A program made the position numbers and the translations under genes. From positions 9,280 through 73,279 of the forward strand of contig BGZN01000005.1 of the NCBI GenBank assembly GCA_003864455.1: a stretch of 64,000 nucleotides of DNA. The letters are read 5' to 3'. The DNA comes from Candidatus Termititenax aidoneus (GTDB lineage: Bacteria > Margulisbacteria > Termititenacia > Termititenacales > Termititenacaceae). Numbering within the stretch: position 1 is the stretch's first letter; each line of letters starts with the position of its first letter. Below the pieces are notes generated by a model, which was not told where the DNA came from, did not search any database, and saw only the letters and a list, made by a program, of their open reading frames with translations. Below are positions 1,892-64,000 of the stretch, piece after piece.

Positions 1892-1926
1892 AATTTTAAG
1901 TAACAAATATCTAAGGGGGTATGTAT

Positions 1927-3930: not shown

Positions 3931-3932
3931 GT

Positions 3933-4622: not shown

Positions 4623-4647
4623 AATTAAGGCAGAAAAGGAATAGTTT

Positions 4648-6721: not shown

Positions 6722-6890
6722 GCTGCGAAGTTAAGTGAAAGTCACAAGCCGCTGAAAGCGGCGAAGTGCTAGTGCAAATAGAGCGATAGCGAAGTTACTT
6801 GTTGCTCTCACTTCACTTCGCTAACGCTTGTGAAGTTCGAGGCGGTCGCAAGGCCGCTGGAAGCGGCGAAGTGTTAGGACAGATAGCGCA
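6722..6890. repeat. REP/MITE-like dispersed repeat copy between the two radical SAM-locus genes
   Basis: The copy reads gcgaagttaagtgaaagtcacaagccgctgaaagcggcgaagtg ... cgaagttacttgttgctctcacttcacttcgc. It has internal inverted symmetry and shares words with the tRNA-flanking repeats. Confidence 0.55.
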
Positions 6891-47239: not shown

Positions 47240-47434
47240 TTATCCTAACGAATATGCGTTTTTCTTGAAGATAAGATTGCGCGGTTCTCTAACGCCAGCA
47301 TTCTGTATTTTTAATGAACTGTATTCTTTCGCGGTTAAAGGCCTGCCTAATTTTTGGGACAATTCAATAGCTTTGCGATTATCATGACTTGAGATGTTTC
47401 TTTTTGATTTAACTAAAGCTAAATTTTTAGACAT
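47240..47434 (-). CDS. hypothetical small protein (64 aa) in AT-rich islet
   Basis: It overlaps the upstream ORF by 8 nt. Composition is AT-rich relative to the neighbourhood. Confidence 0.35.
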   Translation of the reverse strand: MSKNLALVKSKRNISSHDNRKAIELSQKLGRPLTAKEYSSLKIQNAGVREPRNLIFKKNAYSLG

Positions 47435-47873
47435 GATATTTTCCTTTCAAGTATTTAGCAACTAAAGTTTTGCTGGCTTTAGTGTCAAAATACAACCGGT
47501 CTCCATATAATATTTTCGCTCCATATTTTCTGACATAGTGTTCTTTCAAAATAGTCTTGCTGTCAAAAACCACAAAACCGTCAAACCCGGCATCTAAAGA
47601 ATCTTTAGCAACATAGGCAAATAATACACCAGCCACATTGTCAATTTTTTTATTTTTACCAATATTTGCCGGCGCTAACTCTAGGCGGTATATAATATTG
47701 TAGCGTGAACTTGGCACTTCCTCAAATTCTGTCAAGCCCTGAATTGTATCATTGTCAAAATAAGCGATTTTTTGTGATACCGCTCCGAAAGATTTATCCC
47801 AATCAAATTTCCAACCGTCCTTTTTTAACTGTTTAGCTGTTGAAATTAAAATATTTACAGATATTAATTTCAT
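47427..47873 (-). CDS. hypothetical protein (148 aa) in AT-rich islet adjacent to tRNA-Lys
   Basis: The ORF has atypical AT-rich composition. No recognisable domain was found. Confidence 0.4.
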   Translation of the reverse strand: MKLISVNILISTAKQLKKDGWKFDWDKSFGAVSQKIAYFDNDTIQGLTEFEEVPSSRYNIIYRLELAPANIGKNKKIDNVAGVLFAYVAKDSLDAGFDGFVVFDSKTILKEHYVRKYGAKILYGDRLYFDTKASKTLVAKYLKGKYHV

Positions 47874-47930: not shown

Positions 47931-50900
47931 CTAATTCAACACCGCAAATTTAGATTTGATGATGTGTTTTTCGCCGGTGACTTGGTCGGTCAGTGTGAGC
48001 AATACTATATACACGCCGTTGCCGATCTGGTCATTGAAATCATTTTCGCCGCTCCAGATAAATTCCGCCGGAAAATCATTTGTGGCCGGCAGGTCTTTGG
48101 TTGTCTTATATAGCAGCCGGCCGCTGATCGTGTAAATCCGCAGCTCCGCACTGCAATTATTTGGCGCGCGGTAAACAAAATGCAGCGGACCGTCGGTCAG
48201 CTTGACCGGATTGGGCGCGATGATTACATTGTAATTTTCCACTATAGTTGCGTTCCTATTGAGCGCCGAGCCGAGCGTGTACATTCCTGGCTTGTTCGTG
48301 GTAAAACTGACCGCGCCGTTCGCGGCCAGCTGCGCTGCGTTGCCGGTAAACATTTTCCATTTGTATTCCTGCGCGTCAAAATAATAAACAGCCAAATTGT
48401 TGTAAGACGCGGCGTCCGGCGTCAGCGGTATAGTAACTTCGATGCCCTTGTTTGCCGCGCCGCTAAAGTTTAATTCCCAGACGCTGGAAATCCACAGCGT
48501 TTCATTGGCGTTTGGATAATAATTGCTGTATGTAACATCGTTCAGCGTTACGGTTTCATCGTCGTCAAATGTACCAGCCAGCGCCAGGACGCTGACATTG
48601 GGACTATTGCCTTCCTGATAAAAGTCCACAAAATTAAAAGTTACGGCATTGGCAGTGGCAGTGTTCTTGGCTTGGTCTTGCGCGACTATGATAATATCGA
48701 TATTGCCTGATGACCGATCACTGAAATTCAAAGTCAGAGCAAAAGTTGTCTGGCTGTAACTGTCTCTGTCAATCATCTCCAGTTCGCCGTTTACGTAAAC
48801 CAAAATTTCACTCTTAATTTCTTTGTTGCCGGTGATGCGGATCAACGCGCGGCTGGTGTCTGTGTAGCCGAGCGGCGAAATATCCGGTGTAGCCGGCGGG
48901 AAAGTGTCGGGGATAGTCCGAAAAACATAAGCCAGCACGCTGATATTGCCGCTGCTGCCGTTATAATTATTATTGTCGCGCGCTGTAACGGTTACTCTGT
49001 ATTCCGTGTCGTACTCCAGTTCCGGCGGCTGATAATTGAGCTGGTAACTCTTGCCGTCGCTGCTGGGCGTCAGACTGCCGCTCAGGTCAATGAAATACCG
49101 CGTCTCGTTGTTTATCTGCAGAATTGTATATATCGGATTGACGCCGCTCATCGTGTCGATAAGATCGACGATTATTCGAGAATCGATACTGACTGAATAA
49201 TTATTGTTTACCGGTTCGACCGGCTGAATACTCGGCATGGACAAATCGGGCGCGGTCAAGAAATGCTGCGTGCTATTGGCCGTATTCCCGAAAACATCGG
49301 CAATATTTAAAGTGATCTGTAAATTTTTGTTGTAGCCAATATTCGTTAGCAATAATTCCGCGGTCAATTGTTTATTGGCGGTGGTTATAGACAAGACCTG
49401 CATTGTGGCCAGCGGATTATTGATAGAAATACTGATGCTGTCCGGATCGAGGTCTGAATAATTGTCTTCAACAAAAATATTGATTACGGCGTTGTCCGTA
49501 TTTGGATTGCCCTGCGTGATGGTAAAGGTATTAACTGTCGGCGGCCGGAAATCCGTGATGACGACAAAATTATAGGCCAATTCTCGCTGATGTCCCAGAT
49601 TATCCTCAATATTAATCGTTACGGAAACCGTGCTGCCTAGTTCAAAAAAGTCCGGCGGCGTGTAAATAATTTGCGCGTTGTAAATGTCGCTGGCATCTAT
49701 AGTGTAGTCTGCCGCACTGATTACATTGCCGCTGACTTCCAGCGTCAAAGTATTGAGACTGAGACCGGATTCCAAATCCTGGATATTAAAACTGAGCGGC
49801 GTGTCTTGCGGCGTTCTGGTTTGGCCTGGCGCTGGATAGGCCAGGATAGCCGGCGGATCGGTGTCGGCCTTGGTTTGGAAAACAAAAACTTGAGCAGTTA
49901 CCAGTTCGACATTATTGGCGGCGTTGATCGTAATAGTATACGGCTGGTTCAATTCTAAACGGCCGGCGTAAATATAAATGTTGTTCGCGCTGGCCCGCAA
50001 TTCGGCGGTGCGGTCAATATCATTCAAAATAAAATTAAATGTGGCGATCTCGCTTTCATTATCCGTAACCAAGAAAACAATATTTTGCGTAATGGCAACG
50101 CCGGTCAGGGCGAGCGGCTCGATCAGGTTAATAGTCGGAGCGGTTTTGTCATTGATCGTGCGTACCGAGATCGTCACGGTCAGCTCGGCATAATTTCCTG
50201 TAATTACTGCGGACAATTCTTCCTGCGGCGGGTGATTGAAAATTATGCTGCTGGTAGCGCTCGCCGGATTTGCGGAGTTGTCGCCAAAAGAACCGGCGCC
50301 GTCTGTGCTCAGAGTTACCGGCACTTCCTGCAGCGGTGTGCCGTATTTATCCTGCACGGAAATATTGATGGTCGAAGTCTGGCTAAAATTCTTGACGATC
50401 AGAGCCGGCGCTAGATTCAGCACAGCCGGATGCACCAGCTCAAATTTGCCGATATGCAGTGCTTGAGCGCTGAGCGTGTAGCCGCCCTTGAGGTTTGGTG
50501 AGATCACGGCGTTGCCGGTCAAATAAATATTGTCGGTCATATTCCCGTAATAATCGCTCAAAACTTTTCCGTCTGCTGAGATGAATGGATATTTGTCCGG
50601 CGAATACATTTCCAGCCAATAGGTTTTGCCGTTTAAGGACGCGACCGCGGAAGTGTCAAGATAATTCGCGTTGAGGCTCAGGCTGCGAAAATCGGCGCGT
50701 TCATAATCTATTTGATTGCTGGACGGCAAGGTGAGCGCGCCCAGCCATTGACCATCTATTTCGCGGTAAATAGTTACTGTCGAATCCGCGGTAAATTCAT
50801 TCATATCGCCGTTCTCATTTTCAGCGTAGTAACCGGCGTCAATCGGCAGCAAAATGCTCGGCCGGTATTCCAGCGCGCCGATATCGTAAGGCTCACTGCG

Positions 50901-53900
50901 GCTTTTGTTTTTGTAGTCTGTGTCCGAAATCCAGTAAGTATTGCGGCTGTTTTCATTGTCCACGATTTCTTTCGCCGTGGCTTTCGGCACATAGTCATAT
51001 TTGTCTATGGCGCTTAGATTAGCCGAAACACCGGCTGTGTTAATATCAGCCGGATAACAATTATACAGATTGGGCTTGTTGGCGTTTGTATTAACATGCG
51101 CGGTCTTGCCCGCGGCTGTGTTTTCAATGAATAAAGAATTGTAAATATTGGGCTTGATGCTGTTAATATTGTATATAGCGCCGTAATAATTTGCAGCCGT
51201 GTTTCTGATAAATGAGGATTGATAAATATTGTTTGCTTGAGCGGAAGAATAATATATTGCGCCGGCATTATTTGCGGCTTTGTTATAATCAAAAATATTA
51301 TTTATTAGATTTGATTTGCTGTTAATTATATAGATAGCGCCGCCATTTTGAGTGGCGGTATTGCCGCGGAATAAACTTCTTTCTAAGTAAAGATCACCAT
51401 TGCTGACGCAAATACTTCCGCCGTTGTTGGCAGAATTTCCGGAAATCGTTAGATCAGCGCCGTATAAGACGCCTTTGTTATAAATAGCGCCGCCGGCGCC
51501 ATTGCCGGATTTAGCGAGTCGATTGCCTATAAAAATTGTTTTGTTAAGAGTCGTGCTGCCGTTATTGAAAATCGCGCCGCCGCCGCTGTTCGTGCTGTAT
51601 CCGTCAGCGCTATTATTTTGGAAGATCGTTTGATCGACCGTAAGCAGGCTGTTATTGAAAATAGCGCCGCCGCCTTCATTGGCGCTATAGCTGGTGTTAT
51701 TGTCTCGGAGAGTAAGATTATTTAAGACCAGAGCCGCATTATTCAGAATAGCGCCGCCGGAGACAGAACGCCCTTTGACCAGCGTGAGATTTTGCAGAGT
51801 TATGTTATAGCCTTTGCCAAAATTAAAAATGCGGCTTTTTTCCTGCGCATCCAGCGTCGCGCCTTGTTCGGAGACAATGACTATGCCGACTGTGGCGGAG
51901 TTGTTTTCCGGCAAATTGATTTCCGCGGCTAAGTCATAATAGTCGTTGACCAGATTTATAGTGATACTGGACAATTCTTTATGCAAGGCATGGTTTAAAG
52001 CGTTCTGAATATTGCGGAAAGGATAATCGGCAAAACCCAGTTCATGGCCGGTGTAGTCCTTGTCGACATAAATATCCTGCGGCGCTGCTAGCGTGCTCAG
52101 AGTTACGACCAGTTGAGCAATATTGCCGCTGGCGTTTTCCGCGGTGATAATCAGATTGTAAGTCATGGCGGTGTCGAAATAATTGAGGCTTGGCGCGGTT
52201 GTTAAAACATATCCCGTGCTTTGCAGGGTAAACAAAGAATTATCCACAGGCAGATTGAGACTGATCTGCGCCGTGCTGATTTTATCCGGAGTTTCTATAA
52301 TAGATATTTTAAAATCGTTAGTAACCAGCACATTGTTGTAATCAGCGGCGGCTGGCTGTAGCAAAATGATATTTGGCTTATCGGATTCCCAGGCGCCAAT
52401 ATCCGGCTGGTGATGCTCCGGTCTGGCCAGACCGCGCATGTCGCGCGAGACCGTCCAGGCGCTGTCCGAATCGTCCGCCGCGTCCACCGCCGGCGAGTTA
52501 AAAGCGATTTCCGTAAAGGTGTCATCTGTAAAGAGCGGAGCGCTGTCTGCTAAATTGTGGTGCGCGGTAATTGTTCCTGCACCGAACGGACTGTTGTCCA
52601 GAATTGAATTGGCTACAACGGCCGCGCCGTTAGAGCCGTCAAATATTTTTAAATTGTTAACCAGATTGGAATGAATAATTTCTGTTCTCGCGCCATAATC
52701 GTTATACACCGCTTGAGTTATGCCAGCCAGCACAGAATTTTGAAGGCGCGCGTATGCCGCGGGCTGATTGAATATCAAGCGCTCAAGATTGTAGCTGCGC
52801 AGAGCTTCAATATATAACCGGCCTGGATTATTAATTTCGCCGCGATAAACAAAGTTTTTTAAATTAACAGTAACCGGCTGCGCAATATCAATATTTCCGC
52901 TGACAATCGTGTTAGTTGTGCCGATTAAAGAGATATTCGTGTTGTTATTCCAAAGAATATTTTCCGCGTAAGTTTCCCCGAGTAAAAATATTTCACTGTC
53001 ATGTCCGGCGATAGACATAGCCTTGGCGATGGTTTGGAAAGGCAGCTCTGCTGAACCGTCATTGGCGTCATCTCCGTTGAGAGCCGACACATACATTTCT
53101 TTGGGATTGAGCGTGCGGAATTGATAGGCGTGCTTGACGCTGGCCGCGTTTACCACAATGTTGATGCTGGCGCTGAAGCGGAAACTGGGGCTGGGTGTAA
53201 AGGTGAGGTAAAAATCTGTCAAATCCGCGGCGCTAGCGTTTAGGCTGATTGTGATCTGCGCGGTTGGCTGAATGTACTCAACGCCGTTGACCAGCAAAAC
53301 AACAGTTGACGGATCGATATTCTGCCGGTGATCACGTATCCGAAAAGTAACCGGACTATTTACAGAAATATCCTGCGCGCCAGCGGTAGGCTGATATTCA
53401 TTCAGATAAGTTCCGTCATATTCGTAAATGCCTATATCCAACCCGTCGTAAATATAAACGGCGGCATTGGGCGAGCCGCTGTCGATCAGCGGGGAATTAT
53501 AACTGACGCGATAATCGTTGGCGTCTGGATTAATAAAACGCGGAGCGTCTATTTTTAAGTTAGTGCCGCTGTTATTTGTAAATTTATCGCCAGCGGAATA
53601 ATTAATAACAACACTGCTGCCTGAAAAATCCTCTTTGTTGATGTCGCCGTTGGCCCAAAAAACGCTGTTATCTATCGAGCCTTGAACGCGATAAGCTATA
53701 TTGCCGGGATTAGTTGAGTTTGGGCCGGTGTTGTTGTGAAAAACGGAGTGCTTTATATTGATCGGGGTTCGCGCGGGATTTGTTGACGGATAAACGCTAA
53801 AAACGCCGCCGTGAAGCCCTGCGGTGTTATTTTTAAACAAACAATGCTCGGCCAGGATCTCGACACAGTCGAGAAAAACTCCGCCTTCTAGACCACTGTG

Positions 53901-56900
53901 TCCGTTGCTAAAAATAGACCAGTAAGCGGAGACTTTGCTCTCAACAAAAGCGCCACCAGCAAATGTAGCGGTCGCGTTGTTAATTGTTACGTATTCCAGC
54001 ACGGCGTTTACTCTGACCGCCACGCCGCCGAAAGTAGCAGATGTGGAATCGAGCACAGTGTTGCTGATCTGCAGCGGGGACAAGTCATTAGTCGCCTGGG
54101 TGTAAAATAATCCGCCGTCTTTGTTGGCGCTATTGCCGCTGACCAACGTATTCAGCACGGTGATGCGCGCCGCCTTGCTGGTGTTGACCACGGCGCCGTA
54201 GAGCGCGCCGTTTTCTCCCGCGTCATTTACCGCGTGATTGTCCAGGATCAGCAAATTATTCAGTGTGATGCTGTTTAAAATAGTATTTTGCTGATTGATC
54301 ACATTGTTAAAAGAAACAATAGTCAGATCCGCCAATTGAATATCGCCGTTGCCAGTGCTGACGATCATAGCGGTTTGTCTATTGCCCTGGATTTTATTTG
54401 TTTGGAATAAACCTTTGAGAGTAATATTTTTGCTTGGCCAGGACAAAGGCGCGCTGAGCGTGATTTTAGAAGCTATGACGATAATAGTGTCGTTGTTGTC
54501 TGCGGCGTCCAGCGCGTCTTGTAAATTGGCATAATAATCTTTGCCGTCGATATAAGCGACAGAACCACCTGGGTCAAACTCCAGCGCGCCAAGATCGTAG
54601 CCGCCGAGGATCGGCCGGCTGTCGCCGGCATAGTCTGTATTTAGCGCGTAATTAGCCGAAGCTTTATTGAAAGCCGGCGAATCTGTCGAGATTAGACGGT
54701 AAGCGGCGTCCAATTGCGGATCAGCGCTGAGATTATCCGGACCGTCCAGCAGAGTTTGCGCCAAAGTATTGACGCCGTAAAGCGCGCCGCTTCCAGAAGC
54801 CAGCTGCGTACTGTTGTCCCAAATAATGCTGTTCAGGAGCGACAGTGTTTTGTTTGACGAAAAAGAGAAAGCCGTTGCGTTTCCAACTATAGTATTGAAA
54901 TTAAGCGTGGCGCCGCTGAAATTCGACAAACGCAAAGCCGAACTTTTATTGTTGACCAAGAGCGAGTTTTCCACCAACAGATTGGCATTGGCGGCTTCTA
55001 AAGATAAAGCCGAGCCGTTGCCGTTTAACACGCTATTTTCGCTGAAGCTGGACTGTCCAATATAGACTGTTTGCAAGGACGAACTGTTGAGGTAAAGCGC
55101 ACCGCCATTATATTGGGAGGTGTTGTTGTGGAAATGCGAACGTTGAATGTTTACTTTCAAACCGTTGTAATAATACAAAGCTCCTCCCTCGTTGCCTTGA
55201 TTGTTGCTGAATGTGCTGTTTTCGATCTTTAAATACTTTACGCTGGCGTTTATGGCCTGGCCGCTGTTGTCGCTAAAAATGCTATTGACGATATTTACTG
55301 TGCCGCTTTCGTTTTCGATTCTTAACGGATTGCTTAGGCCGTGAAAAATCAGGCTGTCCAGGGTGGCGGTCAGATCGGAGCTGCTCTTGATCTGGATTTT
55401 AAAATTGGTGGTTACGTTGTTGCCTTTTAAAGTCAGATTATTTTTATTAGGCCAGTTCAGCTCGGCTTCTTTTTGGCCGGCCTCGGCCAGCGCGTAATTG
55501 CTGGAGATCTCCAGCGTGTGTCCGTCGGCGAGCGACGGGTCTTCGAAGGCCGCGCGCAGGCTGATGTATTGCTGGCCTAGATCAATATTTTTGACAATGC
55601 GCAGCAGCGGATTTATGGTAACAGTTAGGACATTGGAAGAAATACCTTCCGACCAGGCCTGAATTTCCAAAACAACATTTTCGTTGTTTCCGCTTTTGAG
55701 TTTGGTTTGGGCATAACCGTTGCCGCCGCTGAGCGCTGTAACCGGCTCAAAGCTGGCGCCGCCGCTGTTGGCGGATTTAAAATTAAAACTGATTTCCTGT
55801 CCGGCGACTGTATTTCTGTTGTCGTCCAGCGCCAGGACATTGAGCATTAGATCATAGCCGATCTGCACGCTGGCGGTCGGCGGGTCAAAAACTAAATACT
55901 TAAATGAAGCTCGGCGCGTGTAAAATTCACTCTCCGGCACACTGTATTCGCCGCCGGAAGAATTTTTTACAGCGATGCTAAAATTTACAGTTTGACTGGT
56001 GCCGATATAACCCAGATCAAGCTCGGCCTGAAGCGTGTCATTGATCGTGGCAATGACCAGGTCTTCCCGCTGATACACTTTGGTATTGCCGGTGATGTTT
56101 ATAGTTAAGATGATGTCCGTAATGTCGGTGAGCCCCGTGCTTTGATTGTAAATCACGAAGCTAAGAATTGGGTTGGCTTGATTGCCCTGGCTGCCCGCCG
56201 CCGGCTGAATCCCGTTGATAAACAAACCGTCATATTCATAGCTGCCCAGGTCAAAATATTCATAATATTTTCCGTCGGTCAAAGTAACATTATTTGTGCC
56301 GCGGTCAATGCCCGGATCGGCGCTGGTCAGATGAAAATCACCATTGGCCGCGTCCGCAAAACTCGGCGCGGCGCTGAGACAGTTGATGTTGGCCGCCGAA
56401 TTGTCCGGCGGCAGATTGCTGTGAATTATTGTGGTGTTTTGATTATTCGGCGCGAACATAGGCGCGCTGTTGTCCCAGAGAATAGAGTTGATCGCGGTGA
56501 AAGAAGCTAAATATGCAGAGTCGTTGGCGGCGGCAGAGTAAACACTTGGCTCGCCGCTGCCCAGCGCGGTATTGCCGTAAACTGTGCAGTTTTCCAGCTC
56601 GATCTTGCCGCGGTAAAACAAACCTGTTGACCGCACGCTTTGATTGTAAAAGAAATCGCTGCGCGAGGCGCGCAAATTGCCAGAATTATAAAAAAGGCCG
56701 TAATCTTCAACCTGGTGGCGCGCAAATCTGCTGTTCTTAATTAGAACTGTGCCATAGCCGTCTCCCGCTTCAAACGCGCCAATATTGGCTTGATTGCCGT
56801 AAGCCTGCACATTGTGCAGCTCTAAATTGCTGTTTTCTTTGTAAATTGCGCCGCCGAAACTCAAAGCCCTGTTGCCGCTGATCACTGAGTCGTAAATTTT

Positions 56901-59900
56901 TAAAGTAGAGTTATTATGTAGCCCAATACTTCCGCCGTTTCCGGACTGGCCGTTTAACAAGTGAATACGGTTCAGCGTAACTTGCGCGCCGCTGATAACA
57001 AAATGATTCCCTTGCTTTTGCGCATTCAGCGTTACATTGCCGGAAATGGTTATGTTTTTAGTTATGTTTATGCCTGTCTCGGTGTATTCCCCCGGATCGA
57101 TTTCCAGCGTCTGATCCGGCGCGGCGCGGGACACGGCTTGCTGTATGCTGCCATAATAGCTGTCGCTCTCCAAAATATGAAAAGCGGTTTTTTTAGTTGT
57201 AAAATTTAGGGTCGCGTTTTGCGTGTTGCCGCTTTTGTCCGCGACATTAATGGTTAGATAATGTTCGGCATTAAAACTCACGTCCAGCAGCAGTTTGATC
57301 TGAATGCCGTCGGCGATATAACTGAGGCTGCCGGTGTAATTCACCGGCGTGCCGTTCAGCAGTATCTCCAGCAAATTTAAACTGAGGCCGGAATCAAAAT
57401 CCTGCGCTGTGAAATTCAAAGTCAGCGGCGAGTCCAGATCGCTGTCGCCATTATTTGGCGAGATGATCTGAATTTCTGGTTTGGTGTCGTCTGCCTGAGT
57501 TGTAAAAGAATAAGTTACGCTAAGCTGATTGCCCGCATAATCTTCAGCGTTGATCGTGATGCGCAGGTTCTCTTTATAATTAAAAAAAGGCGCAGGGTTA
57601 GTGTAAACATAATCGTTGGAGTCAGTACGAACGGCGATATACTTGTATTGGTCGTTTATGTACAGAGAGATGTAGCTGAGCGGGCTGTCCTGATCAAAAA
57701 GCTCGAAACTAATATCCGCGGTTATAGACACATTGACACTGCCGGGCTGCGGCGTGAGCGTACTCATATTGAGCGTTGGCGCGGTGCGGTCGGCTAGCTC
57801 CAGCGCCGAAGACCAGGGACTGTACGGCGAATAAACATCTGTGTCCGCGTCCCGCCAGCGCAGCCTAACCGCTATTGTTTGATTGTCAGACACGCTGATC
57901 TCGACATTTTCCGAGGCCGCAGGATAAAGCCGGGTATAAATAATTTCGCCGTTGCCGGAAACGCTCAGCTCCCATTCTTCCAAATAATTATTGATCGTCG
58001 CCGGCCGGTTAATTTTCAGGCGCTGATCGTCCGCGGTGTTTCTGCTGTCTTTATTGGTCCAATTGATGTTGTAGATCAAGCCCGGCGTCGGCGGTATTTC
58101 TGTGGTATAAGAAAAAGTACAAACCGCTGTGTTGCCGCTGTAGTCCGCCACGCTGATGGTTACAAAAATCGCTTCGCCGTAATACAGCGGGTTGGGACTG
58201 GGAATGACTTGGACATAAGCAGTGTTGTCTTGATGGACTATATTTAAACTGTGCTCATTGACGGAAACCCGCAGCGTGTCAAAATTTACTTGGCTCTCAG
58301 TGTCCGCAGCATAAAAAGTTATCTTGCTGTTGATATTGTTGCCGGTAACAATATTATAGATGGTGGGCGGCGTGATGTCCGACAAAGTGCTAAAAGAAAA
58401 ATTATAAGTGGCGCTGTTGCCGGCTGCGTCCAGCGCGGCGACCTGAATATTTACAGTGTTGTCATACTGCAGATTTTGGCCGAGAACCAGCCGGCCTTGG
58501 TAAGTTTTTGAAAAATCGCTTTCAGATTTGTAAAGAGATAAACTCTCCAAATAACTACCCTCGACCGCTTGTTCGTTAATTGTAACCGCCAAGCTGATCT
58601 TATAGTCCGGGATTTCGGAATGATCTGTAAAATAAAGACAAATAGGGGCTGTAATAGGTATATTGGCCGAACTGTTCCCCGGCTCGCTGTAGATGATCGG
58701 CGGCGTGCGGTCGGCCAATTGAATAGAATTTTCCGGCGACCAGGCCATAATATCGCTGCCGGGCAGCAGCCAGTACACATAAGCCGTAACATTTTGATTG
58801 TCGCTGACCGTGATCTCGACATGCTCCGTCAAGATCGAAATGCTGGTTATTTCAGAATAATCAGAGTTGCTGCCCAGGCGGTATTTTATATTCCATTCCG
58901 AAATAGCGTTATTTTGGGTCGGCGGACGATGAACCAGCACTATTTGATTATCCGTAGTGTTGTAATTTTTACTGTTGACCCAGGTCAAAGCTGGCGCTTC
59001 CGGCATGGACAGTTCCGCAGTGGTCAGCCAGCTGCGGGTCAGAACAACGCTGTTGCCGGCTGTGTCGAAGGCGTTTATAGTGGCGGAAATTTTAGTGCCG
59101 ATAGCGCTTGTATTGTCCAGTATAAACAAAATATACTCCAGACCTCCCCCGGCGTTGATAGTTACGACGCCGGTCAGCGACTCGGGCGTACCGTAAGCTG
59201 TTTGGCCGGCATTATTGACGAGACGCTGGGTTTCCGCTTCTATGGTCAGGACGCTGTGATTGTCGGTCAGGCCGGTTTCGTCAGAAAAGCCCAGGCCAAA
59301 ACTTGGCGTTACACCGGCCTGTATTTCCAGGACTTGAGCCGGGTAAACATCCCGCATTTCCGGCGGGGTGCGGTCGCCGATATATAACTCCATGCTTGCC
59401 GACTTTTCCGATTCTATGGTGTCGCTGACCCAGGCGATTTGCAGACTGACGGAGGTATTGTCCGGGAGCTCGGTGAACACATAATGATCTATATTAATGT
59501 CTACAGTGGCAATTGCTTCCATATCGCCGGGTTTATAGATTTTCCAATGGGTGATGCCGATGTCGGGCCGGACAATTTGATCGAGCGAAATAGTGATCTG
59601 CTGATTGTCCGTAGTGTTGCGTTCGGTTTCATTGTCCCAGATCAGCAGCGGCGCGGCAGGCTGCGGCAGTTGCACCCGAAAACTAAAAGCGGCATTGGCG
59701 GTATTGCCGGCGTTGTCCGCAAAATTGAGCGTAACAAAGACCAGATCATTATAATTAAACTGATTGTTGAGTAAGAGATATATATTATTTGGAAAAGGAG
59801 TCATTAGCGTATGAGGAATAGAATTTATATTATCGGTCGATATTTCTACATCATAAGAAGCGGCGTTTATTCCGCTATGATTATCCGTAACGGTAATTGC

Positions 59901-62876
59901 CACATAAGATGTAGTATAAGACACATTTGAAGATGACGCTTCTGGAATTGAGCTGACAAATGTCGGCGGCGTGCGGTCGCTGATGTACAGCGGAGCGCTT
60001 TCCGGCGACAGGCCGGATTCCTCGTCTTCGACGCTGACCCAGCTGATCTTTGCCGCGATCGTCAGATCATCCGGCATGTCGTAAATAGTGTAACTGTTCA
60101 CATTAATATCGACTGTCGCGACTAGTTCGTCGTCAACATAGATGCGCCACTCTTTAGTCTCATTTGGCGCGGGTTGATCGAGCCAAATGGTTATTTGCTG
60201 ATGATCCATAGAATTGCGCTCAGTTTCATTGTCCCAGGTCAACCGCGGCGCGGCGGGCGGCGGCAATTCTGTTTTGAAGCTAAAAGCAACACTGGCGGTA
60301 TTGCCGGCATTGTCTGTAACATTAAAAGTAACAAAAACATGCTCATTGTAGCCAAAAGCATTGTCCGGAGTGAACTCATACAGATCATCGTTAAAAGTAC
60401 TCGTGCCGGTCAGAACGTTGATATTGTCCGTGGAAACTTCAATAGAAGCGTCCATTGTTCCCATATTGTTATTTGTTACATTAATGAGAATGGCGCTGTC
60501 GGGCGGCACGCGGGTTGCGCCGTTGGCCGGCAGATGATCCAAAATTTCCGGCGGCGTGCGATTGCCGATGCTCAGCGGAGCGCTCTCCGGCGACAGGCCG
60601 GATTCCTCGTCTTCGATGCTGATCCAGCTGATCTGCGCTGTGATCGTCAGATTATCCGGAATATCGTAAAAAGTGTGGCTGTCCGCGCTGATATTCACTG
60701 TCGCGGCAGGTTCGCCATTGATGTAAATACGCCAAAATTTAGTCTCATTTGGCACAGTTTGATTAAGCAGGACAGTGATCTGCTGATTGTCTGTAGTGTT
60801 GCGCTCGGTTTCATTGTCCCAGGTCAACTGCGGCGCGGCGGGCGGCGGTAATTCTGTTTTGAAACTAAAAGTAACGCTGGCGGTGTTACCGTCATTGTCC
60901 GTAACATTAAAAGTAACAAAAACATGTTCATTGTAATCAAAAGGCTTGTTTGGAGTAAACTGAAATATGTCAGTTGCGTTAAAAATATTCTGACCGTCTA
61001 GGGCATTGATATTGTCTGTGGAAATTTCCGCGAAAGCATTCATTCCTATATTGTTATTTGTTACATTAACGAGAATAACACTGTCGACCGGCACACGGGT
61101 GGCGTTATTGGCCGGCGTGTGGCCTAAAATTTGCGGCGGCGTGCGATTGCCGAGAGTTAAGCTGGCCTCCGGAGAGAAAGGCGAAGCGGCGCCGGTTAAT
61201 TCGTCGATCCAAAAAATACTGGCCGATATAGTTTGATTATCCGTAATATTGTTTAGCGTGCAAACTGCGTCAGCCGAGGGAATATCAGTTCTGATAATTT
61301 CACCGTTGAGAACCAAGCCCCAGTAGCCGATAAGCTCGTCCGATATTTCCGGCCTGCTTACTTCGATAATTTGATTTGTGGAAGTGTTGCGCTCGTCTGC
61401 ATTGAACCAATTCAAGTTCGGTATATTGGGCGTGGGCGGATTTTCTGTAGTGTAAGAAAAATTGACGCTGACTGTATTGCCGTGCCGGTCTGCCGCCGCG
61501 ATCTCTACATCCAGGGTAGCGCCGTAATGCTGTTTTTCCGGCAGATCAACAGTGATAGTGTCATCTGTAATACTAAAATTACCCTGCATATTTTCGCCGT
61601 TTATGGTTATGGACAGGCTGTCCCAATCCACACCGATATTTTTGTAATCTGCGGCGGCATTGTCGGTTACACTGAATTGAATATTGACGCTGACTGAATT
61701 GCTGGTTACGACGTCAAAGATCACCGGCGACGTGGTGTCGCGCACCGCGGCGTAAGCGTTGACCACACCATAGCCGTAGCGCGGGTCTTTGCCGGTCTGG
61801 GCGTCCACCTGATCGCCGTATTGAACGGCGGTTTTTTGTAAGATTTCCCGAATTTCATTGGCGCTTAAATACGGATACGTGCCTTTGACCAGCGCGGCCA
61901 CGCCGCTAACCACTGGCGTGGCGTAACTAGTGCCTTGGCCTACCATCGTATATTCGCTGTTTGGCGAGGTTGTCATCATATAAAAATAAGGCGCGGCCAG
62001 TTCCGTAGTCTTGTCGCCGCTGCCCACCAGCGAGCCGCCGCCGATAGCGTTGTTCTCACTGACGCCGGCCACGCCGATCACTTCCGGAAAACCGGCCGGT
62101 ATAGAAGTGATAGACTGCGGCAGTATTAAATGAACTGTGCCGTAGCTTCCTCCTAGGTTTGCGCCGACTTCCGTGTTGCCCATAGCGGCCACCAGCAGCA
62201 CGTTGTTGGTGGAGGCATACTGCACGGCATCATAGAGTTCATTTTCACTGACACTGGATTCAAAATAAGTCTTAGCTAGAGTTTCTATGATGATATCAGG
62301 CACAAATTTTAGTTGTGGTATGCCTGTTCTGATTTGCTCTATTAAATTTGCCTTGATTACCGGATTGCTGGATATATCCTCCCAGCTCGGCATGCCGAGA
62401 CTCAGATTAATAATATCCGCGCCATTATCCACCGCCCAGCGTATGCCGTCAGCTATTCTGGTACTGGCGGTTGTTGTGTCATCACGCAGCACTTTTACCG
62501 GAATTATTTCAGCGTTCCAGGCCACGCCGGTCGTGCCGATGCCGTTATTGCCCTTGGCCGCGGCGATGCCGGCCACTGCCGTGCCGTGATAGTAAATACT
62601 TGAACTGAACGGATCGGGATTGGCGGTATCGTCATTATCGACAAAATCCCAGCCGGGCAGCACGCTCAGATCGGGGTGATCGCTTTGCACGCCGCTGTCC
62701 ACCACGGCGATCTTCACTGTGTAAGTGCCGGTGCTCAATGCCCAGGCATAGTTAGCGCTGATTTGCCACAAGTAGTCTTGTTGCGGGTAGTACTCATCAT
62801 TCGGTAATACGGACGCGACAGCCGCTCCCGCCGCGGTCAGCAGTAAAAATAAAAGCAAAAAATATTTACGCAGCAT
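47931..62876 (-). CDS. giant (about 4,980 aa) secreted subtilisin-like (S8) protease / beta-helix and Ig-like repeat adhesin with T9SS-type C-terminal sorting domain
   Basis: The likely start is the ATG at 62876, giving a signal peptide (MLRKYFLLLFLLLTAAGAAVASV). An S8 domain (VAVVDSG...HGT...GTSYATPVVSGVAALV) is followed by about 225-aa repeated modules (FSFKTELPPPAAPQLTWDNETERN...) and many GGAIYN/NNTA parallel beta-helix-like repeats. The C-terminus (IYTISGRLLYKT...GVYIVLLT...KSKFAVLN) resembles a Por/T9SS tail. Confidence 0.8.
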   Translation of the reverse strand: MLRKYFLLLFLLLTAAGAAVASVLPNDEYYPQQDYLWQISANYAWALSTGTYTVKIAVVDSGVQSDHPDLSVLPGWDFVDNDDTANPDPFSSSIYYHGTAVAGIAAAKGNNGIGTTGVAWNAEIIPVKVLRDDTTTASTRIADGIRWAVDNGADIINLSLGMPSWEDISSNPVIKANLIEQIRTGIPQLKFVPDIIIETLAKTYFESSVSENELYDAVQYASTNNVLLVAAMGNTEVGANLGGSYGTVHLILPQSITSIPAGFPEVIGVAGVSENNAIGGGSLVGSGDKTTELAAPYFYMMTTSPNSEYTMVGQGTSYATPVVSGVAALVKGTYPYLSANEIREILQKTAVQYGDQVDAQTGKDPRYGYGVVNAYAAVRDTTSPVIFDVVTSNSVSVNIQFSVTDNAAADYKNIGVDWDSLSITINGENMQGNFSITDDTITVDLPEKQHYGATLDVEIAAADRHGNTVSVNFSYTTENPPTPNIPNLNWFNADERNTSTNQIIEVSRPEISDELIGYWGLVLNGEIIRTDIPSADAVCTLNNITDNQTISASIFWIDELTGAASPFSPEASLTLGNRTPPQILGHTPANNATRVPVDSVILVNVTNNNIGMNAFAEISTDNINALDGQNIFNATDIFQFTPNKPFDYNEHVFVTFNVTDNDGNTASVTFSFKTELPPPAAPQLTWDNETERNTTDNQQITVLLNQTVPNETKFWRIYINGEPAATVNISADSHTFYDIPDNLTITAQISWISIEDEESGLSPESAPLSIGNRTPPEILDHLPANGATRVPPDSAILINVTNNNMGTMDASIEVSTDNINVLTGTSTFNDDLYEFTPDNAFGYNEHVFVTFNVTDNAGNTASVAFSFKTELPPPAAPRLTWDNETERNSMDHQQITIWLDQPAPNETKEWRIYVDDELVATVDINVNSYTIYDMPDDLTIAAKISWVSVEDEESGLSPESAPLYISDRTPPTFVSSIPEASSSNVSYTTSYVAITVTDNHSGINAASYDVEISTDNINSIPHTLMTPFPNNIYLLLNNQFNYNDLVFVTLNFADNAGNTANAAFSFRVQLPQPAAPLLIWDNETERNTTDNQQITISLDQIVRPDIGITHWKIYKPGDMEAIATVDINIDHYVFTELPDNTSVSLQIAWVSDTIESEKSASMELYIGDRTPPEMRDVYPAQVLEIQAGVTPSFGLGFSDETGLTDNHSVLTIEAETQRLVNNAGQTAYGTPESLTGVVTINAGGGLEYILFILDNTSAIGTKISATINAFDTAGNSVVLTRSWLTTAELSMPEAPALTWVNSKNYNTTDNQIVLVHRPPTQNNAISEWNIKYRLGSNSDYSEITSISILTEHVEITVSDNQNVTAYVYWLLPGSDIMAWSPENSIQLADRTPPIIYSEPGNSSANIPITAPICLYFTDHSEIPDYKISLAVTINEQAVEGSYLESLSLYKSESDFSKTYQGRLVLGQNLQYDNTVNIQVAALDAAGNSATYNFSFSTLSDITPPTIYNIVTGNNINSKITFYAADTESQVNFDTLRVSVNEHSLNIVHQDNTAYVQVIPSPNPLYYGEAIFVTISVADYSGNTAVCTFSYTTEIPPTPGLIYNINWTNKDSRNTADDQRLKINRPATINNYLEEWELSVSGNGEIIYTRLYPAASENVEISVSDNQTIAVRLRWRDADTDVYSPYSPWSSALELADRTAPTLNMSTLTPQPGSVNVSITADISFELFDQDSPLSYISLYINDQYKYIAVRTDSNDYVYTNPAPFFNYKENLRITINAEDYAGNQLSVTYSFTTQADDTKPEIQIISPNNGDSDLDSPLTLNFTAQDFDSGLSLNLLEILLNGTPVNYTGSLSYIADGIQIKLLLDVSFNAEHYLTINVADKSGNTQNATLNFTTKKTAFHILESDSYYGSIQQAVSRAAPDQTLEIDPGEYTETGINITKNITISGNVTLNAQKQGNHFVISGAQVTLNRIHLLNGQSGNGGSIGLHNNSTLKIYDSVISGNRALSFGGAIYKENSNLELHNVQAYGNQANIGAFEAGDGYGTVLIKNSRFARHQVEDYGLFYNSGNLRASRSDFFYNQSVRSTGLFYRGKIELENCTVYGNTALGSGEPSVYSAAANDSAYLASFTAINSILWDNSAPMFAPNNQNTTIIHSNLPPDNSAANINCLSAAPSFADAANGDFHLTSADPGIDRGTNNVTLTDGKYYEYFDLGSYEYDGLFINGIQPAAGSQGNQANPILSFVIYNQSTGLTDITDIILTINITGNTKVYQREDLVIATINDTLQAELDLGYIGTSQTVNFSIAVKNSSGGEYSVPESEFYTRRASFKYLVFDPPTASVQIGYDLMLNVLALDDNRNTVAGQEISFNFKSANSGGASFEPVTALSGGNGYAQTKLKSGNNENVVLEIQAWSEGISSNVLTVTINPLLRIVKNIDLGQQYISLRAAFEDPSLADGHTLEISSNYALAEAGQKEAELNWPNKNNLTLKGNNVTTNFKIQIKSSSDLTATLDSLIFHGLSNPLRIENESGTVNIVNSIFSDNSGQAINASVKYLKIENSTFSNNQGNEGGALYYYNGLKVNIQRSHFHNNTSQYNGGALYLNSSSLQTVYIGQSSFSENSVLNGNGSALSLEAANANLLVENSLLVNNKSSALRLSNFSGATLNFNTIVGNATAFSFSSNKTLSLLNSIIWDNSTQLASGSGALYGVNTLAQTLLDGPDNLSADPQLDAAYRLISTDSPAFNKASANYALNTDYAGDSRPILGGYDLGALEFDPGGSVAYIDGKDYYANLQDALDAADNNDTIIVIASKITLSAPLSWPSKNITLKGLFQTNKIQGNRQTAMIVSTGNGDIQLADLTIVSFNNVINQQNTILNSITLNNLLILDNHAVNDAGENGALYGAVVNTSKAARITVLNTLVSGNSANKDGGLFYTQATNDLSPLQISNTVLDSTSATFGGVAVRVNAVLEYVTINNATATFAGGAFVESKVSAYWSIFSNGHSGLEGGVFLDCVEILAEHCLFKNNTAGLHGGVFSVYPSTNPARTPINIKHSVFHNNTGPNSTNPGNIAYRVQGSIDNSVFWANGDINKEDFSGSSVVINYSAGDKFTNNSGTNLKIDAPRFINPDANDYRVSYNSPLIDSGSPNAAVYIYDGLDIGIYEYDGTYLNEYQPTAGAQDISVNSPVTFRIRDHRQNIDPSTVVLLVNGVEYIQPTAQITISLNASAADLTDFYLTFTPSPSFRFSASINIVVNAASVKHAYQFRTLNPKEMYVSALNGDDANDGSAELPFQTIAKAMSIAGHDSEIFLLGETYAENILWNNNTNISLIGTTNTIVSGNIDIAQPVTVNLKNFVYRGEINNPGRLYIEALRSYNLERLIFNQPAAYARLQNSVLAGITQAVYNDYGARTEIIHSNLVNNLKIFDGSNGAAVVANSILDNSPFGAGTITAHHNLADSAPLFTDDTFTEIAFNSPAVDAADDSDSAWTVSRDMRGLARPEHHQPDIGAWESDKPNIILLQPAAADYNNVLVTNDFKISIIETPDKISTAQISLNLPVDNSLFTLQSTGYVLTTAPSLNYFDTAMTYNLIITAENASGNIAQLVVTLSTLAAPQDIYVDKDYTGHELGFADYPFRNIQNALNHALHKELSSITINLVNDYYDLAAEINLPENNSATVGIVIVSEQGATLDAQEKSRIFNFGKGYNITLQNLTLVKGRSVSGGAILNNAALVLNNLTLRDNNTSYSANEGGGAIFNNSLLTVDQTIFQNNSADGYSTNSGGGAIFNNGSTTLNKTIFIGNRLAKSGNGAGGAIYNKGVLYGADLTISGNSANNGGSICVSNGDLYLERSLFRGNTATQNGGAIYIINSKSNLINNIFDYNKAANNAGAIYYSSAQANNIYQSSFIRNTAANYYGAIYNINSIKPNIYNSLFIENTAAGKTAHVNTNANKPNLYNCYPADINTAGVSANLSAIDKYDYVPKATAKEIVDNENSRNTYWISDTDYKNKSRSEPYDIGALEYRPSILLPIDAGYYAENENGDMNEFTADSTVTIYREIDGQWLGALTLPSSNQIDYERADFRSLSLNANYLDTSAVASLNGKTYWLEMYSPDKYPFISADGKVLSDYYGNMTDNIYLTGNAVISPNLKGGYTLSAQALHIGKFELVHPAVLNLAPALIVKNFSQTSTINISVQDKYGTPLQEVPVTLSTDGAGSFGDNSANPASATSSIIFNHPPQEELSAVITGNYAELTVTISVRTINDKTAPTINLIEPLALTGVAITQNIVFLVTDNESEIATFNFILNDIDRTAELRASANNIYIYAGRLELNQPYTITINAANNVELVTAQVFVFQTKADTDPPAILAYPAPGQTRTPQDTPLSFNIQDLESGLSLNTLTLEVSGNVISAADYTIDASDIYNAQIIYTPPDFFELGSTVSVTINIEDNLGHQRELAYNFVVITDFRPPTVNTFTITQGNPNTDNAVINIFVEDNYSDLDPDSISISINNPLATMQVLSITTANKQLTAELLLTNIGYNKNLQITLNIADVFGNTANSTQHFLTAPDLSMPSIQPVEPVNNNYSVSIDSRIIVDLIDTMSGVNPIYTILQINNETRYFIDLSGSLTPSSDGKSYQLNYQPPELEYDTEYRVTVTARDNNNYNGSSGNISVLAYVFRTIPDTFPPATPDISPLGYTDTSRALIRITGNKEIKSEILVYVNGELEMIDRDSYSQTTFALTLNFSDRSSGNIDIIIVAQDQAKNTATANAVTFNFVDFYQEGNSPNVSVLALAGTFDDDETVTLNDVTYSNYYPNANETLWISSVWELNFSGAANKGIEVTIPLTPDAASYNNLAVYYFDAQEYKWKMFTGNAAQLAANGAVSFTTNKPGMYTLGSALNRNATIVENYNVIIAPNPVKLTDGPLHFVYRAPNNCSAELRIYTISGRLLYKTTKDLPATNDFPAEFIWSGENDFNDQIGNGVYIVLLTLTDQVTGEKHIIKSKFAVLN
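59400..61400. repeat. large in-frame tandem repeats (about 675-bp unit, at least 2.5 copies) inside the giant gene
   Basis: Near-identical blocks run around 59560-60230 and 60230-60900. One example is cattgtcccaggtcaaSYgcggcgcggcgggcggcggYaattctgttttgaaRctaaaag... Confidence 0.7.
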
Positions 62877-63173
62877 CGCTTGAAACTCTCCCTCGTCTAA
62901 ATTCATACCCATTTTCCGGTAAAATATACCTGACGCCCCTGCGTCAGGTACTTCCGCGCGCGCATTGTGAGACGCGCGCGGTCGTACCATAATAGTAGTA
63001 TTTATTTTTGCCGCCCCTGCGATCCGGTCGCTGAGCCTGGGACGGTGAGCTTGTATCCTGCGGATACGCTGGCGAACCGTCGAAGCGTCGGTCGTATCAT
63101 GCTGATTTTTATATCGACATATATGGTAGATATATGTATTGATTTTTTCTGGGGCTTATTTGTAATTAGCCTC

Positions 63174-63290: not shown

Positions 63291-63364
<74 letters not shown>

Positions 63365-63417
63365 CTCGAGCTTAACAAGCGTGCGCAGCACGCGCCGTTA
63401 AGCGAGAGCCACAAGCG

Positions 63418-63690
63418 GCGTAGCCGCGAAGTGACAAGGGCCAGAAAACAACAAGTGATGTAAAGACAGTCACTTGTGAAGTTCGACGCGAACTTAACAA
63501 GCGAGCGCAGCGAGTGAGGTTAAGTGAGAGCCAGCCGTCGGCTCGGTCAGCCGACGACACTTCTGCGGCGACTTGAGGTCGCTCGCAGTCGCAAGGAGGC
63601 GTAGCCGCGAAGTGACAAGGGCCAGAAAACAACAAGTGATGTAAAGACAGTCACTTGCGAAGTTCGACGCGAACTTAACAAGCGAGCATT
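63418..63690. repeat. two copies of a roughly 90-bp element (gcgtagccgcgaagtgacaagggccagaaaacaacaagtgatgtaaagacagtcacttgYgaagttcgacgcgaacttaacaagcgagc) between tRNA-Ile and tRNA-Ala
   Basis: The copies at about 63418-63510 and 63599-63690 are nearly identical. A third partial copy follows tRNA-Ala at about 63930-64000. The unit contains a CAAGTGA-N11-TCACTTG hairpin. Confidence 0.75.
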
Positions 63691-63737
63691 GTCGTGTTGG
63701 TGGCGCTCAATTAACAAAACGAACGCGAAGATTACCT

Positions 63738-63810
63738 GGGGGCGTAGCTCAGTTGGTAGAGCGCCTGCTTTGCAAGCAGGATGTCGTGGGTTCGATTCCT
63801 GTCGCCTCCA
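63738..63810 (+). tRNA. tRNA-Ala (anticodon UGC) with G3:U70, CCA not encoded
   Basis: The acceptor stem GGGGGCG/CGCCTCC includes a G:U at position 3:70. The anticodon loop is CTTTGCA and the T-loop is GGTTCGATTCC. Confidence 0.85.
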
Positions 63811-64000
63811 CTCGAGCTTCACAAGCGAGCATGTGCGAGCGACGTGAAGCGAGAGCCACAAGGCCGCGTAGCGGCCGAAGTGACAAGTTTGCGACACGAA
63901 AGCCACTTGCGTTAACGACGAGAGCCACAAGCACGCGAAGCGTGCGAAGTGACAAGGGACAGAAAACAACAAGTGATATAAAGACAGTCACTTGCAAAGC

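Follow-up and report, generated by a model that had tools for sequence, protein, structure and literature searches.

A giant subtilase-headed surface protein candidate of Candidatus Termititenax aidoneus with a type IX-like C-terminal tail and a PorV/PorQ-family barrel as possible carrier

Introduction

In Porphyromonas gingivalis, PorU and PorZ sit on the cell surface bound to PorV and PorQ, forming the so-called attachment complex. The secretion system of type IX (T9SS) has been described as limited to the Bacteroidota and a few other phyla of the Fibrobacteres-Chlorobi-Bacteroidetes (FCB) group, and its genes are stated to be absent outside of those phyla (PMC11285876). PorA, PorU, and PorZ retain their C-terminal domains (CTDs; PMC11285876). 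PorV is the carrier of type A CTDs; those of type B have PorP-like carriers, to which they are also anchored (PMC10994853). Described here is a giant gene that encodes a T9SS-type tail in Candidatus Termititenax aidoneus, a member of Candidatus Margulisiibacteriota within the Cyanobacteriota/Melainabacteria group and, thus, outside both the Bacteroidota and the FCB group. The gene lies on the minus strand of a 64,000-nucleotide stretch of contig BGZN01000005.1 (positions 9,280 to 73,279; assembly GCA_003864455.1), hereafter the window, in whose coordinates all positions are given unless another contig is named. An earlier note on this DNA, made from the sequence alone, had called such a sorting tail notable outside the Bacteroidota, and with the host placed in Margulisiibacteriota the remark was apt.

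The gene product is read here as a fast-evolving adhesin-protease of the cell surface, exported through Sec and with its tail docking on a PorV-like barrel, an interpretation to which a probability of roughly 0.55 is assigned. It is built on the signal peptide, the subtilase motifs, the modular stalk, the tail, a PorV-family barrel encoded in the genome, and the pairing of cargo and barrel genes in the lineage, all of which were observed directly. The features on which the argument first depends are as follows.

47931..62876, minus strand: the whole gene, 4,981 codons plus stop; corresponds to GBR73062.1 / NO1_0514 of Ca. Termititenax aidoneus.
62886..62894, minus strand: GAGGGAGAG, resembling a Shine-Dalgarno motif, 9 nt ahead of the ATG at 62876 (sequence reading).
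62814..62876, minus strand: Sec signal peptide, aa 1-21 (sequence reading).
61722..62807, minus strand: S8 subtilase catalytic domain, aa 24-385 (PF00082 plus motifs).
47934..48221, minus strand: C-terminal sorting-type domain, aa 4886-4981, with homology to T9SS type A CTDs, PorU/PorZ, and FlgD Ig-like domains.

The C-terminal tail and its relatives

The tail carries the motif series APNPV...IYTISGRLL...W.G.N...NGVY...K.AVLN. When isolated as a 105-residue segment, it is matched over the full profile by TIGR04183 at 26.5 bits (cutoff 23), and its best match is to the PorU model, in the portion covering the CTD (37.5 bits, E 5.8e-10), with the PorZ CTD next. A word-indexed homologue search with the tail returned no matches; HMMER, run exhaustively against 1.8 billion representative proteins, recovered 287 relatives, among them approximately 19 PorU homologues. 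In 128 of the best 150 relatives the domain lies at the very C-terminus, where it closes with the end motif (A/V)(V/I)(L/I)(K/R/N).

Comparison with solved structures leads in the same direction. A profile of nine tails, restricted to the giant family in order to avoid circularity, aligned end-to-end with the P. gingivalis PorU CTD as its top solved chain (6za2; E 2.1e-5), followed by FlgD Ig-like domains, and a broader tail profile matched PorU (4e-14), PorZ (5e-7), FlgD Ig (1e-6), and a translocon-bound substrate CTD (8glj_D). A model of the tail computed from its single sequence has seven strands and a modest predicted local distance difference test score (pLDDT) of 63.8, and the top two Foldseek matches to it, both weak, were PorZ and PorU (E 4e-4 and 1e-3). 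These matches indicate true homology between the tail and T9SS CTDs, with the tail being nearest to the non-cleaved PorU/PorZ class and divergent enough to sit at the edge of the curated TIGR04183 model.

The same searches bring up a different explanation, in which the tail is no more than an Ig-like domain of the FlgD type that happens to stand last and serves structure or ligand binding. The protein would then remain in the periplasm or be exported in some other way, and the barrels discussed below would be ordinary FadL-type transporters. For example, among 90 C-terminal tails examined at E <= 0.01, FlgD_ig was matched by 79, about as often as the T9SS models (TIGR04183 by 81 and PF18962 by 49), solved FlgD Ig domains are recovered by the tail profiles, and the curated scores are borderline. 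Opposed to this explanation are the strictly terminal position of the domain in those 128 of the best 150 relatives and the conservation of its last residues. Other export routes likewise find little in the protein to recommend them: neither a 12-strand translocator barrel nor a two-partner secretion (TPS) domain was matched by Pfam or NCBIfam, in which only the PMP repeats match, and the lack of a C-terminal autotransporter barrel means that this is not a type V system. Similarly, Pfam and NCBIfam returned no RTX repeats or type I secretion (T1SS) features, and the presence of an N-terminal signal peptide together with the absence of RTX from these scans is not the pattern of a type I RTX adhesin.

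PorV/PorQ-family barrels and their gene partners

The T. aidoneus genome encodes a predicted barrel of the PorV/PorQ family, NO1_2086, which was recovered by a search with a related barrel and matches NF033709 with an E value of 1.8e-19. The best PDB fold match of its structure model (23 homologues; pLDDT 83.6) is chain F of 8gl6 (367 residues; E 1.5e-11, TM 0.71), with FadL/TbuX at 2e-7. The 8gl6 entry is the Flavobacterium johnsoniae T9SS complex with the RemA CTD, and chain F, which is unnamed in the output, is taken here to be PorV. Automatic labels of this kind already exist: the UniRef name of NO1_2086 is PorV/PorQ family protein, and one tail relative, MDR1998303.1, is labeled "T9SS type A sorting domain-containing protein" by the NCBI Prokaryotic Genome Annotation Pipeline (PGAP).

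Tail and barrel are also linked by genomic pairing. At all loci fetched, the gene immediately upstream of the PorV-like gene ends in the tail type of the giant (12/12), and the two genes are separated by 0-48 bp, or by 261 bp in the Ca. Electryonea clarkiae pair, whose upstream gene encodes 1,299 aa, about the size of PorU, and lay outside the scans with a PorU model. The pairs include homologues of the giant itself (contigs L005 and L007). On L005, for example, a PorV/PorQ-family barrel (NF033709, E 1e-16) starts 8 bp past the stop codon of the giant homologue P0005, and the next gene on the opposite strand is a second PorV-like barrel, with SLH domains, preceded by a 652-aa tail-ended protein. 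The commonest pair joins a protein of approximately 1,300 aa with CarboxypepD_reg repeats to a barrel.

Taken together, the terminal position, the end motif, and the 12/12 pairing, mostly at 0-48 bp, are hard to reconcile with the FlgD-type explanation. The fold match of the barrel, where the presumed PorV lies four orders of magnitude ahead of FadL, also counts against it. The overlap of the barrel family with the FadL, UPF0164, and TraF_2 models speaks in favor of this explanation, and on balance it is regarded as unlikely.

Two further observations were made at these loci. First, PorV/PorQ barrels with C-terminal SLH domains are encoded at L005:13600-16461 (-) and L007:11482-14364 (-), each after a gene for a 652-aa protein whose tail is CHU_C/FlgD-like; it would be unusual for a PorV-like protein to be tethered through SLH. 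Second, Margulisiibacteriota-type contigs L008-L014 carry a conserved two-gene module in which a protein of approximately 1,300 aa with CarboxypepD_reg/transthyretin-like repeats and the tail type of the giant is followed 0-48 bp later by a PorV/PorQ-family barrel. The sole scanned tail-bearing protein of that size, P0029, had no NCBIfam match. Examples of the module are located at:

L010:6056-11137, CarboxypepD_reg protein plus barrel.
L012:6106-11362, CarboxypepD_reg protein plus barrel.
L014:6052-11398, CarboxypepD_reg protein plus barrel.
L009:3-3258, CarboxypepD_reg protein plus barrel.

Core components of type IX secretion

If the giant were canonical T9SS cargo, it would be served by a complete T9SS, with SprA as translocon, GldKLMN/PorKLMN as motor, and PorU as sortase, and its tail would be cleaved, leaving the fibre released or linked to lipopolysaccharide (LPS) in the manner of the gingipains. 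Several results could be accommodated in this way: the isolated tail passes TIGR04183 and is homologous to bona fide CTDs, the genome has a PorV-family barrel, PGAP has applied the type A label to MDR1998303.1, and a conserved domain ahead of the tail occupies the position of the Ig-like domain of known cargo. The machinery itself did not come to light, as scans of the 64-kb window, and of approximately 200 kb of related loci reaching 10 kb to either side of each PorV-like gene, yielded neither SprA, GldK-N, nor PorU. Moreover, the placeable PorU homologues among the tail relatives are WOR-3 or bacteroidotal-looking rather than Margulisiibacteriota, the tail is nearest to the class that is not cleaved, and a literature search found no paper linking Margulisbacteria with T9SS or type IX secretion. 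Together with the published statement that T9SS genes are absent beyond the FCB phyla, these results make a canonical system improbable here. The earlier note had held that the tail assignment would fall if the genome had no CTD-dependent machinery and the CTD model scored below threshold; CTD-linked machinery is present in the form of a PorV/PorQ barrel, and a complete T9SS (SprA, PorK-N/GldK-N, PorU) was not found in the window or at the related loci.

A separate candidate in the window, a 1,787-aa protein at 12756-18119 (+), was considered as an SprA-like translocon and rejected, since it has no SprA match in NCBIfam or Pfam, no similar solved chain, and no credible match to any other family. 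Its N-terminus combines a signal peptide with Ig-like repeats, its long C-terminal region looks like a beta-barrel and closes with a terminal Phe, and it may be a very large outer-membrane protein.

Gene start and the S8 subtilase head

The minus-strand reading frame is uninterrupted over 47931..62990, with 5,019 codons when counted from the first ATG, and the GenBank call (GBR73062.1, "hypothetical protein NO1_0514" by exact protein look-up) is 12 codons longer than the one adopted here (4,993 aa). The ATG at 62876 is the best candidate start, predicting 4,981 residues, because a Shine-Dalgarno-like motif precedes it and a signal peptide directly follows. That peptide, MLRKYFLLLFLLLTAAGAAVA|SV, was read by eye as MLRK, a hydrophobic core, and an AVA|SV cleavage site, and no lipobox Cys was seen in it.

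The catalytic head is matched by Pfam PF00082 (Peptidase_S8) at 156.2 bits against a cutoff of 21.8 (aa 54-370), and its nearest solved structures are thermitase (E 2.4e-30) and the subtilisins. Aligned to the thermitase motifs, the triad is represented by VVDSG (D58), HGTAV (H97), and GTSYATP (S315), and the oxyanion segment, NLSLG, is present at 157, with approximately 60 additional residues between it and the Ser segment. An I9 propeptide is usual, though not universal, in S8 peptidases. Pfam and NCBIfam scans and alignment to solved subtilases found no I9 match ahead of this S8 domain, and the mature-type subtilase N-terminus begins 3 residues past the signal peptide; with the subtilase alignment starting directly after that peptide, the enzyme is without a propeptide. 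When metagenomes were scanned with the head, the sole match was an unrelated 968-aa subtilase at 30% identity.

Beta-helices, Ig/FN3 stalks, and DNA repeats

Between the head and the tail, the protein is made up of two stalks and five right-handed beta-helix domains, which are listed below from the N-terminus to the C-terminus.

57195..61763, minus strand: N-terminal stalk, aa 372-1894, six FN3-like units alternating with nine Big_5-type Ig units.
59673..61421, minus strand: the three best-conserved FN3+Big_5 modules, aa 486-1068 (DNA and protein repeat comparison).
56226..57182, minus strand: beta-helix domain 1, aa 1899-2217, with PMP-type repeat and DUF5123 match, ending DLGSYEYDG.
55638..55844, minus strand: Big_1-like Ig domain, aa 2345-2413, between helices 1 and 2 (match under the curated threshold).
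54570..55604, minus strand: beta-helix domain 2, aa 2425-2769, with Pfam Beta_helix at 2550-2689 and choice-of-anchor Q at 2730-2767.
53412..54560, minus strand: beta-helix domain 3, aa 2773-3155, with GGxI repeats at 2921-3023, ending DIGIYEYDG.
53112..53393, minus strand: Big_5-like Ig unit, aa 3162-3255 (iterated hidden Markov models, HMMs).
52377..53102, minus strand: beta-helix domain 4, aa 3259-3500, with an N-terminal DUF1565 match and choice-of-anchor Q at 3459-3498.
50859..52079, minus strand: beta-helix domain 5, aa 3600-4006, in which GGAIYN / Chlam_PMP / POMP repeats occupy 3707-3850.
48600..50417, minus strand: C-terminal stalk, aa 4154-4759, one Invasin_D3/Big_1-like domain, four Big_5-like units, and further Ig-like domains.
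48237..48599, minus strand: conserved pre-tail domain, aa 4760-4880 (...AVYYFDAQEYKWK...), a segment also found in relatives (alignment).

All five helix domains close with a D[IL]G..E motif, and four of them are backed by Beta_helix, Chlam_PMP/POMP, DUF1565, or DUF5123 plus choice-of-anchor Q matches; domain 3 has no match to a curated family model, and its limits were set by motif positions only. Beta_helix scores 37 bits on a 600-aa piece of the protein, and the choice-of-anchor Q model (NF041518) scores 51.9 bits on the whole protein, with individual copies at 27.5 and 35.6-39.7 bits (cutoff 25). HMMs iterated from the clearest copies delineate six FN3-like and at least 14 Big_5-like units in the whole protein, and the pre-tail domain is likely to adopt a beta-sandwich fold.

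Each repeated module consists of an FN3-like unit and a Big_5 Ig unit, with a period in the 59.4-61.4 kb interval of 585-597 nt (195-199 aa). DNA identity between modules is 74-84% across the best 88-300 nt, pairwise protein identities among the three best modules are 63-66%, 55%, and 42-48%, and Tandem Repeats Finder reported no arrays.

Much of what the earlier note had proposed is retained by this analysis, including the single minus-strand open reading frame (ORF) of about 4,980 aa, whose upper coordinate, 62876, is the start adopted here, the S8 head with its D/H/S motifs and GTSYATP, the Ig-like modules, and the beta-helix tracts. Its description of the modules as approximately 225 aa long and nearly identical in DNA has to be replaced by the figures just given.

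Orthologues, evolutionary rate, and assembly integrity

Searches with the C-terminal 600 aa of the giant recover positional orthologues in three termite-gut Margulisiibacteriota metagenome-assembled genomes (MAGs) and in Ca. Termititenax persephonae. In the three MAGs, the gene order of giant, aspC, rmlA, purQ, and rnfDCE is conserved. Identity over the C-terminal 600 aa is 78% in the closest MAG and 32-35% in the other three of the four genomes (32-34% in the two MAGs among them), where the housekeeping neighbors are far better preserved: they are 58-93% identical overall (77-93% in the closest MAG and 58-86% in the two diverged ones). Collinearity with the T. persephonae orthologue extends over aa 1497-4981 at 34% identity, against 78% for aspC. 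The gene must therefore be changing far more quickly than the genes around it, and such divergence fits a surface protein that interacts with a partner. Relatives of 3,300-4,900 residues also occur on independent assemblies. A second giant gene (L007:18012-21462, minus strand; 4,904 aa called) was observed on a Logan contig a few kb from a giant homologue and its barrel, such that genomes of this kind may hold several fibres.

The earlier note had also raised the worry that the ORF might be a chimeric assembly of paralogous, repeat-containing genes. In a draft genome from single-cell or low-input material, on a 77-kb contig (76,962 bp), a gene with internal repeats could indeed be a chimera, a collapsed array, or a decaying pseudogene. 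The repeats are too diverged to collapse (74-84% in DNA, 42-66% in protein), 4,981 codons are read without a stop, approximately 3,500 aa line up in order with the T. persephonae orthologue, synteny of the C-terminus and flanks holds in another three MAGs, and giant-sized relatives have been assembled independently. With diverged repeats and collinear orthologues, chimeric assembly can be set aside, and an artefact of any of these kinds is highly improbable.

Proposed export, anchoring, and function

According to the proposed mechanism, the protein would cross the inner membrane via Sec by means of the cleavable signal peptide read from its sequence. Its last approximately 95 residues would then form a seven-strand beta-sandwich that targets and anchors it at the outer membrane by docking on a PorV/PorQ-family (FadL-like) barrel, a step suggested by the strict gene pairing in relatives and by the carrier action of PorV/PorQ/PorP-like proteins in the Bacteroidota. 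Since the tail resembles the non-cleaved tails of PorU and PorZ, it would probably be retained as a non-covalent anchor rather than undergo PorU-type cleavage and LPS attachment. The outer membrane could be crossed by a full T9SS or by a reduced, PorV-based route.

From its C-terminal anchor, a stalk of approximately 25 Ig/FN3-like domains and five beta-helices would project outward, placing the N-terminal, probably active, predicted subtilase at the distal tip; the domain order is directly observed, and the geometry and activity are those expected of such an arrangement. T. aidoneus reportedly lives attached to the ectosymbiotic spirochetes of termite-gut protists, and it is tempting to suggest that the fibre binds a partner surface, either that of the ectosymbiotic Treponema or of the protist, and perhaps processes it proteolytically.

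Several observations weigh against this reading. With respect to the tail, TIGR04183 falls below its cutoff of 23 when the domain is scored in context (18.8 bits over the full model length in the whole protein and 18.2 bits in a 598-aa piece), Pfam, including PF18962, has no match to the giant's own tail, the structure model is of low confidence, and generic beta-sandwiches score almost as high as the top matches. FlgD has the same fold, and so tail homology alone is no proof of a sorting role. With respect to the barrel, NO1_2086 is under the curated NF033709 cutoff (70.5 versus 90 bits), and it shares 85% identity with the barrel on L009, from a termite-gut Margulisbacteria MAG, which stands behind a different, CarboxypepD_reg cargo (768 residues on a truncated contig, with counterparts of approximately 1,300 aa elsewhere). 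In the window, the gene that follows the giant is a 148-aa ORF rather than a barrel. As for the head, autonomous folding and activity are unproven because a propeptide appears to be lacking, and a full-length relative, P0009 (4,184 aa), is without an S8 head, which makes the head a variable module. The link to spirochete attachment derives from the lifestyle that Utami et al. reportedly described in 2019. To these must be added the host phylum, which is neither Bacteroidota nor FCB as would be expected for type A cargo, and the missing core components and published restriction of T9SS genes already discussed.

Because of the phylum, the borderline model score, and the core machinery not being established, the giant cannot be filed as confirmed T9SS cargo. 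What survives of the original proposal is the domain reading and, in broad terms, the notion of a protease-adhesin displayed on the surface of an organism that lives attached. Of the families it had named for checking, Peptidase_S8 and Beta_helix are matched and Por_Secre_tail (PF18962) is not, while the Por/T9SS-like C-terminal domain holds as a matter of homology and as an isolated match, and remains borderline in its native context.

Genomic surroundings

The giant is flanked by housekeeping genes, including lepA, hemW, ftsH, recG, rnfECD, purQ, rmlA, aspC, and tRNA genes, and the window also encodes RuvB, glutamine synthetase III, and a protein matching the BB0259-like lytic transglycosylase. 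This last match prompted the idea of a spirochete origin, which was discarded once the giant had been identified as a T. aidoneus protein; LepA, FtsH, RuvB, and glutamine synthetase III trace to that record as well. The 148-aa ORF (47427-47873, minus strand) lies 57 bp downstream of the giant on the same strand, is 93% identical in the syntenic MAG L001, and has no Pfam or NCBIfam family match. On the other side, tRNA-Ile(GAT) and tRNA-Ala(TGC) genes adjoin at 63291-63811 (+) in the arrangement of a ribosomal RNA (rRNA) operon spacer. No 16S gene lies upstream of the pair, as the start of the giant gene occupies that place, which suggests either a split rRNA operon or a 23S gene past the end of the window.

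Elsewhere in the window, positions 1921-8123 (+) make up a possible cluster resembling those for ribosomally synthesized and post-translationally modified peptides (RiPPs). A 669-aa ORF in it ends with a series of CxxxC-type repeats rich in Cys. The other members are a radical SAM/SPASM maturase assigned to the CXXX-repeat target family (4648-5847, plus strand), which scores 275 bits where the cutoff is 350, and another radical SAM gene (6891-8123, plus strand). Paralogous ORFs of approximately 680 aa, which start MYRK(I/V)I..KEN.AV, lie on either side of a nitrilase-like gene at 34921-36972 and 38412-40439 (+). They contain tandem repeats of the motif ETGRMPNYS.PGEKNLYQQWHN.YKYDPEV, and their many Pfam matches, with zero significant stretches, look spurious. 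Finally, a 670-aa ORF at 19924-21936 (-) has a weak EF-hand calcium-binding motif and no other recognizable domain.

Significance

A T9SS-type tail and a PorV-type barrel form a conserved gene pair in a phylum that lies across the bacterial tree from the Bacteroidota, next to the Cyanobacteria. If the pairing is functional, it would either extend the range of T9SS or define a simpler module of tail plus carrier barrel, and such a module would be a possible source of the cargo-handling branch of T9SS. More speculatively, and with less confidence than is placed in the docking of the giant itself, Margulisiibacteriota, a diderm phylum, might possess a surface-display system of their own, in which proteins with T9SS-type tails are served by dedicated PorV/PorQ barrels encoded behind the cargo genes, with one barrel paralogue fused to SLH domains; its largest cargo would be the fibre of 5,000 residues with the protease at its tip, holding Termititenax to its spirochete. 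Were this tentative scheme true, it would represent a minimal relative of T9SS, an evolutionary precursor, or an ancient lateral acquisition.

The giant gene is likewise a fast-evolving, surface-directed candidate adhesin for the symbiosis of Termititenax, spirochete, and protist. An excess of very large genes has been reported for Margulisbacteria (bioRxiv 10.1101/2023.11.21.568195), and this gene provides an annotated example.

Comparison with known systems

Partial resemblances are found in several systems. The chlamydial Pmps and other beta-helix adhesins share passenger domains of GGA(I/L/V) / FxxN repeats with the giant, as seen in its Chlam_PMP and POMP_repeat matches, but they end in a C-terminal autotransporter barrel that the giant lacks. 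Choice-of-anchor Q proteins (NF041518) are represented by two copies above cutoff, each closing a beta-helix domain; the domain occurs with alternative anchors and, hence, says nothing about the anchor used by the giant. Cell-envelope S8 proteinases, such as lactococcal PrtP and the streptococcal C5a peptidase ScpA, have an N-terminal subtilase, Ig/FN3-like spacers, and a C-terminal surface anchor in common with it, and the Ig-like domains of C5a peptidase are weakly matched by the tail profile. These enzymes differ in being anchored through LPXTG and sortase in monoderms, in their length (1,100-1,900 aa), and in having a propeptide.

For the tail, the closest matches in both sequence and fold are P. 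gingivalis PorU and PorZ, whose CTDs stay on (PMC11285876). The body of the giant differs from both, as it has neither a C25 peptidase nor a beta-propeller, is cargo-like, and is approximately four times longer.

The closest functional analogues of the giant would appear to be SprB and RemA, giant surface adhesins that F. johnsoniae exports by T9SS. Differences from them are evident: the tail of the giant is type A-like, of the PorU/PorZ subtype, rather than type B; the barrel paired with the giant family belongs to PorV/PorQ rather than PorP/SprF; the giant has a protease head and beta-helix domains; and its host lies outside the FCB group and is not known to have a gliding or T9SS motor. The likeness, nevertheless, extends to the overall plan, in which an N-terminal signal for Sec is followed by a greatly elongated stalk of repeats and, at the C-terminus, by a sorting domain of beta-sandwich type, combined with surface anchoring via an outer-membrane carrier barrel, as proposed here for the giant, and it reaches the genome as well, where the type B cargo gene adjoins the gene for its carrier (PMC10994853 and references therein), much as tail-bearing genes adjoin PorV-like genes among the relatives of the giant.

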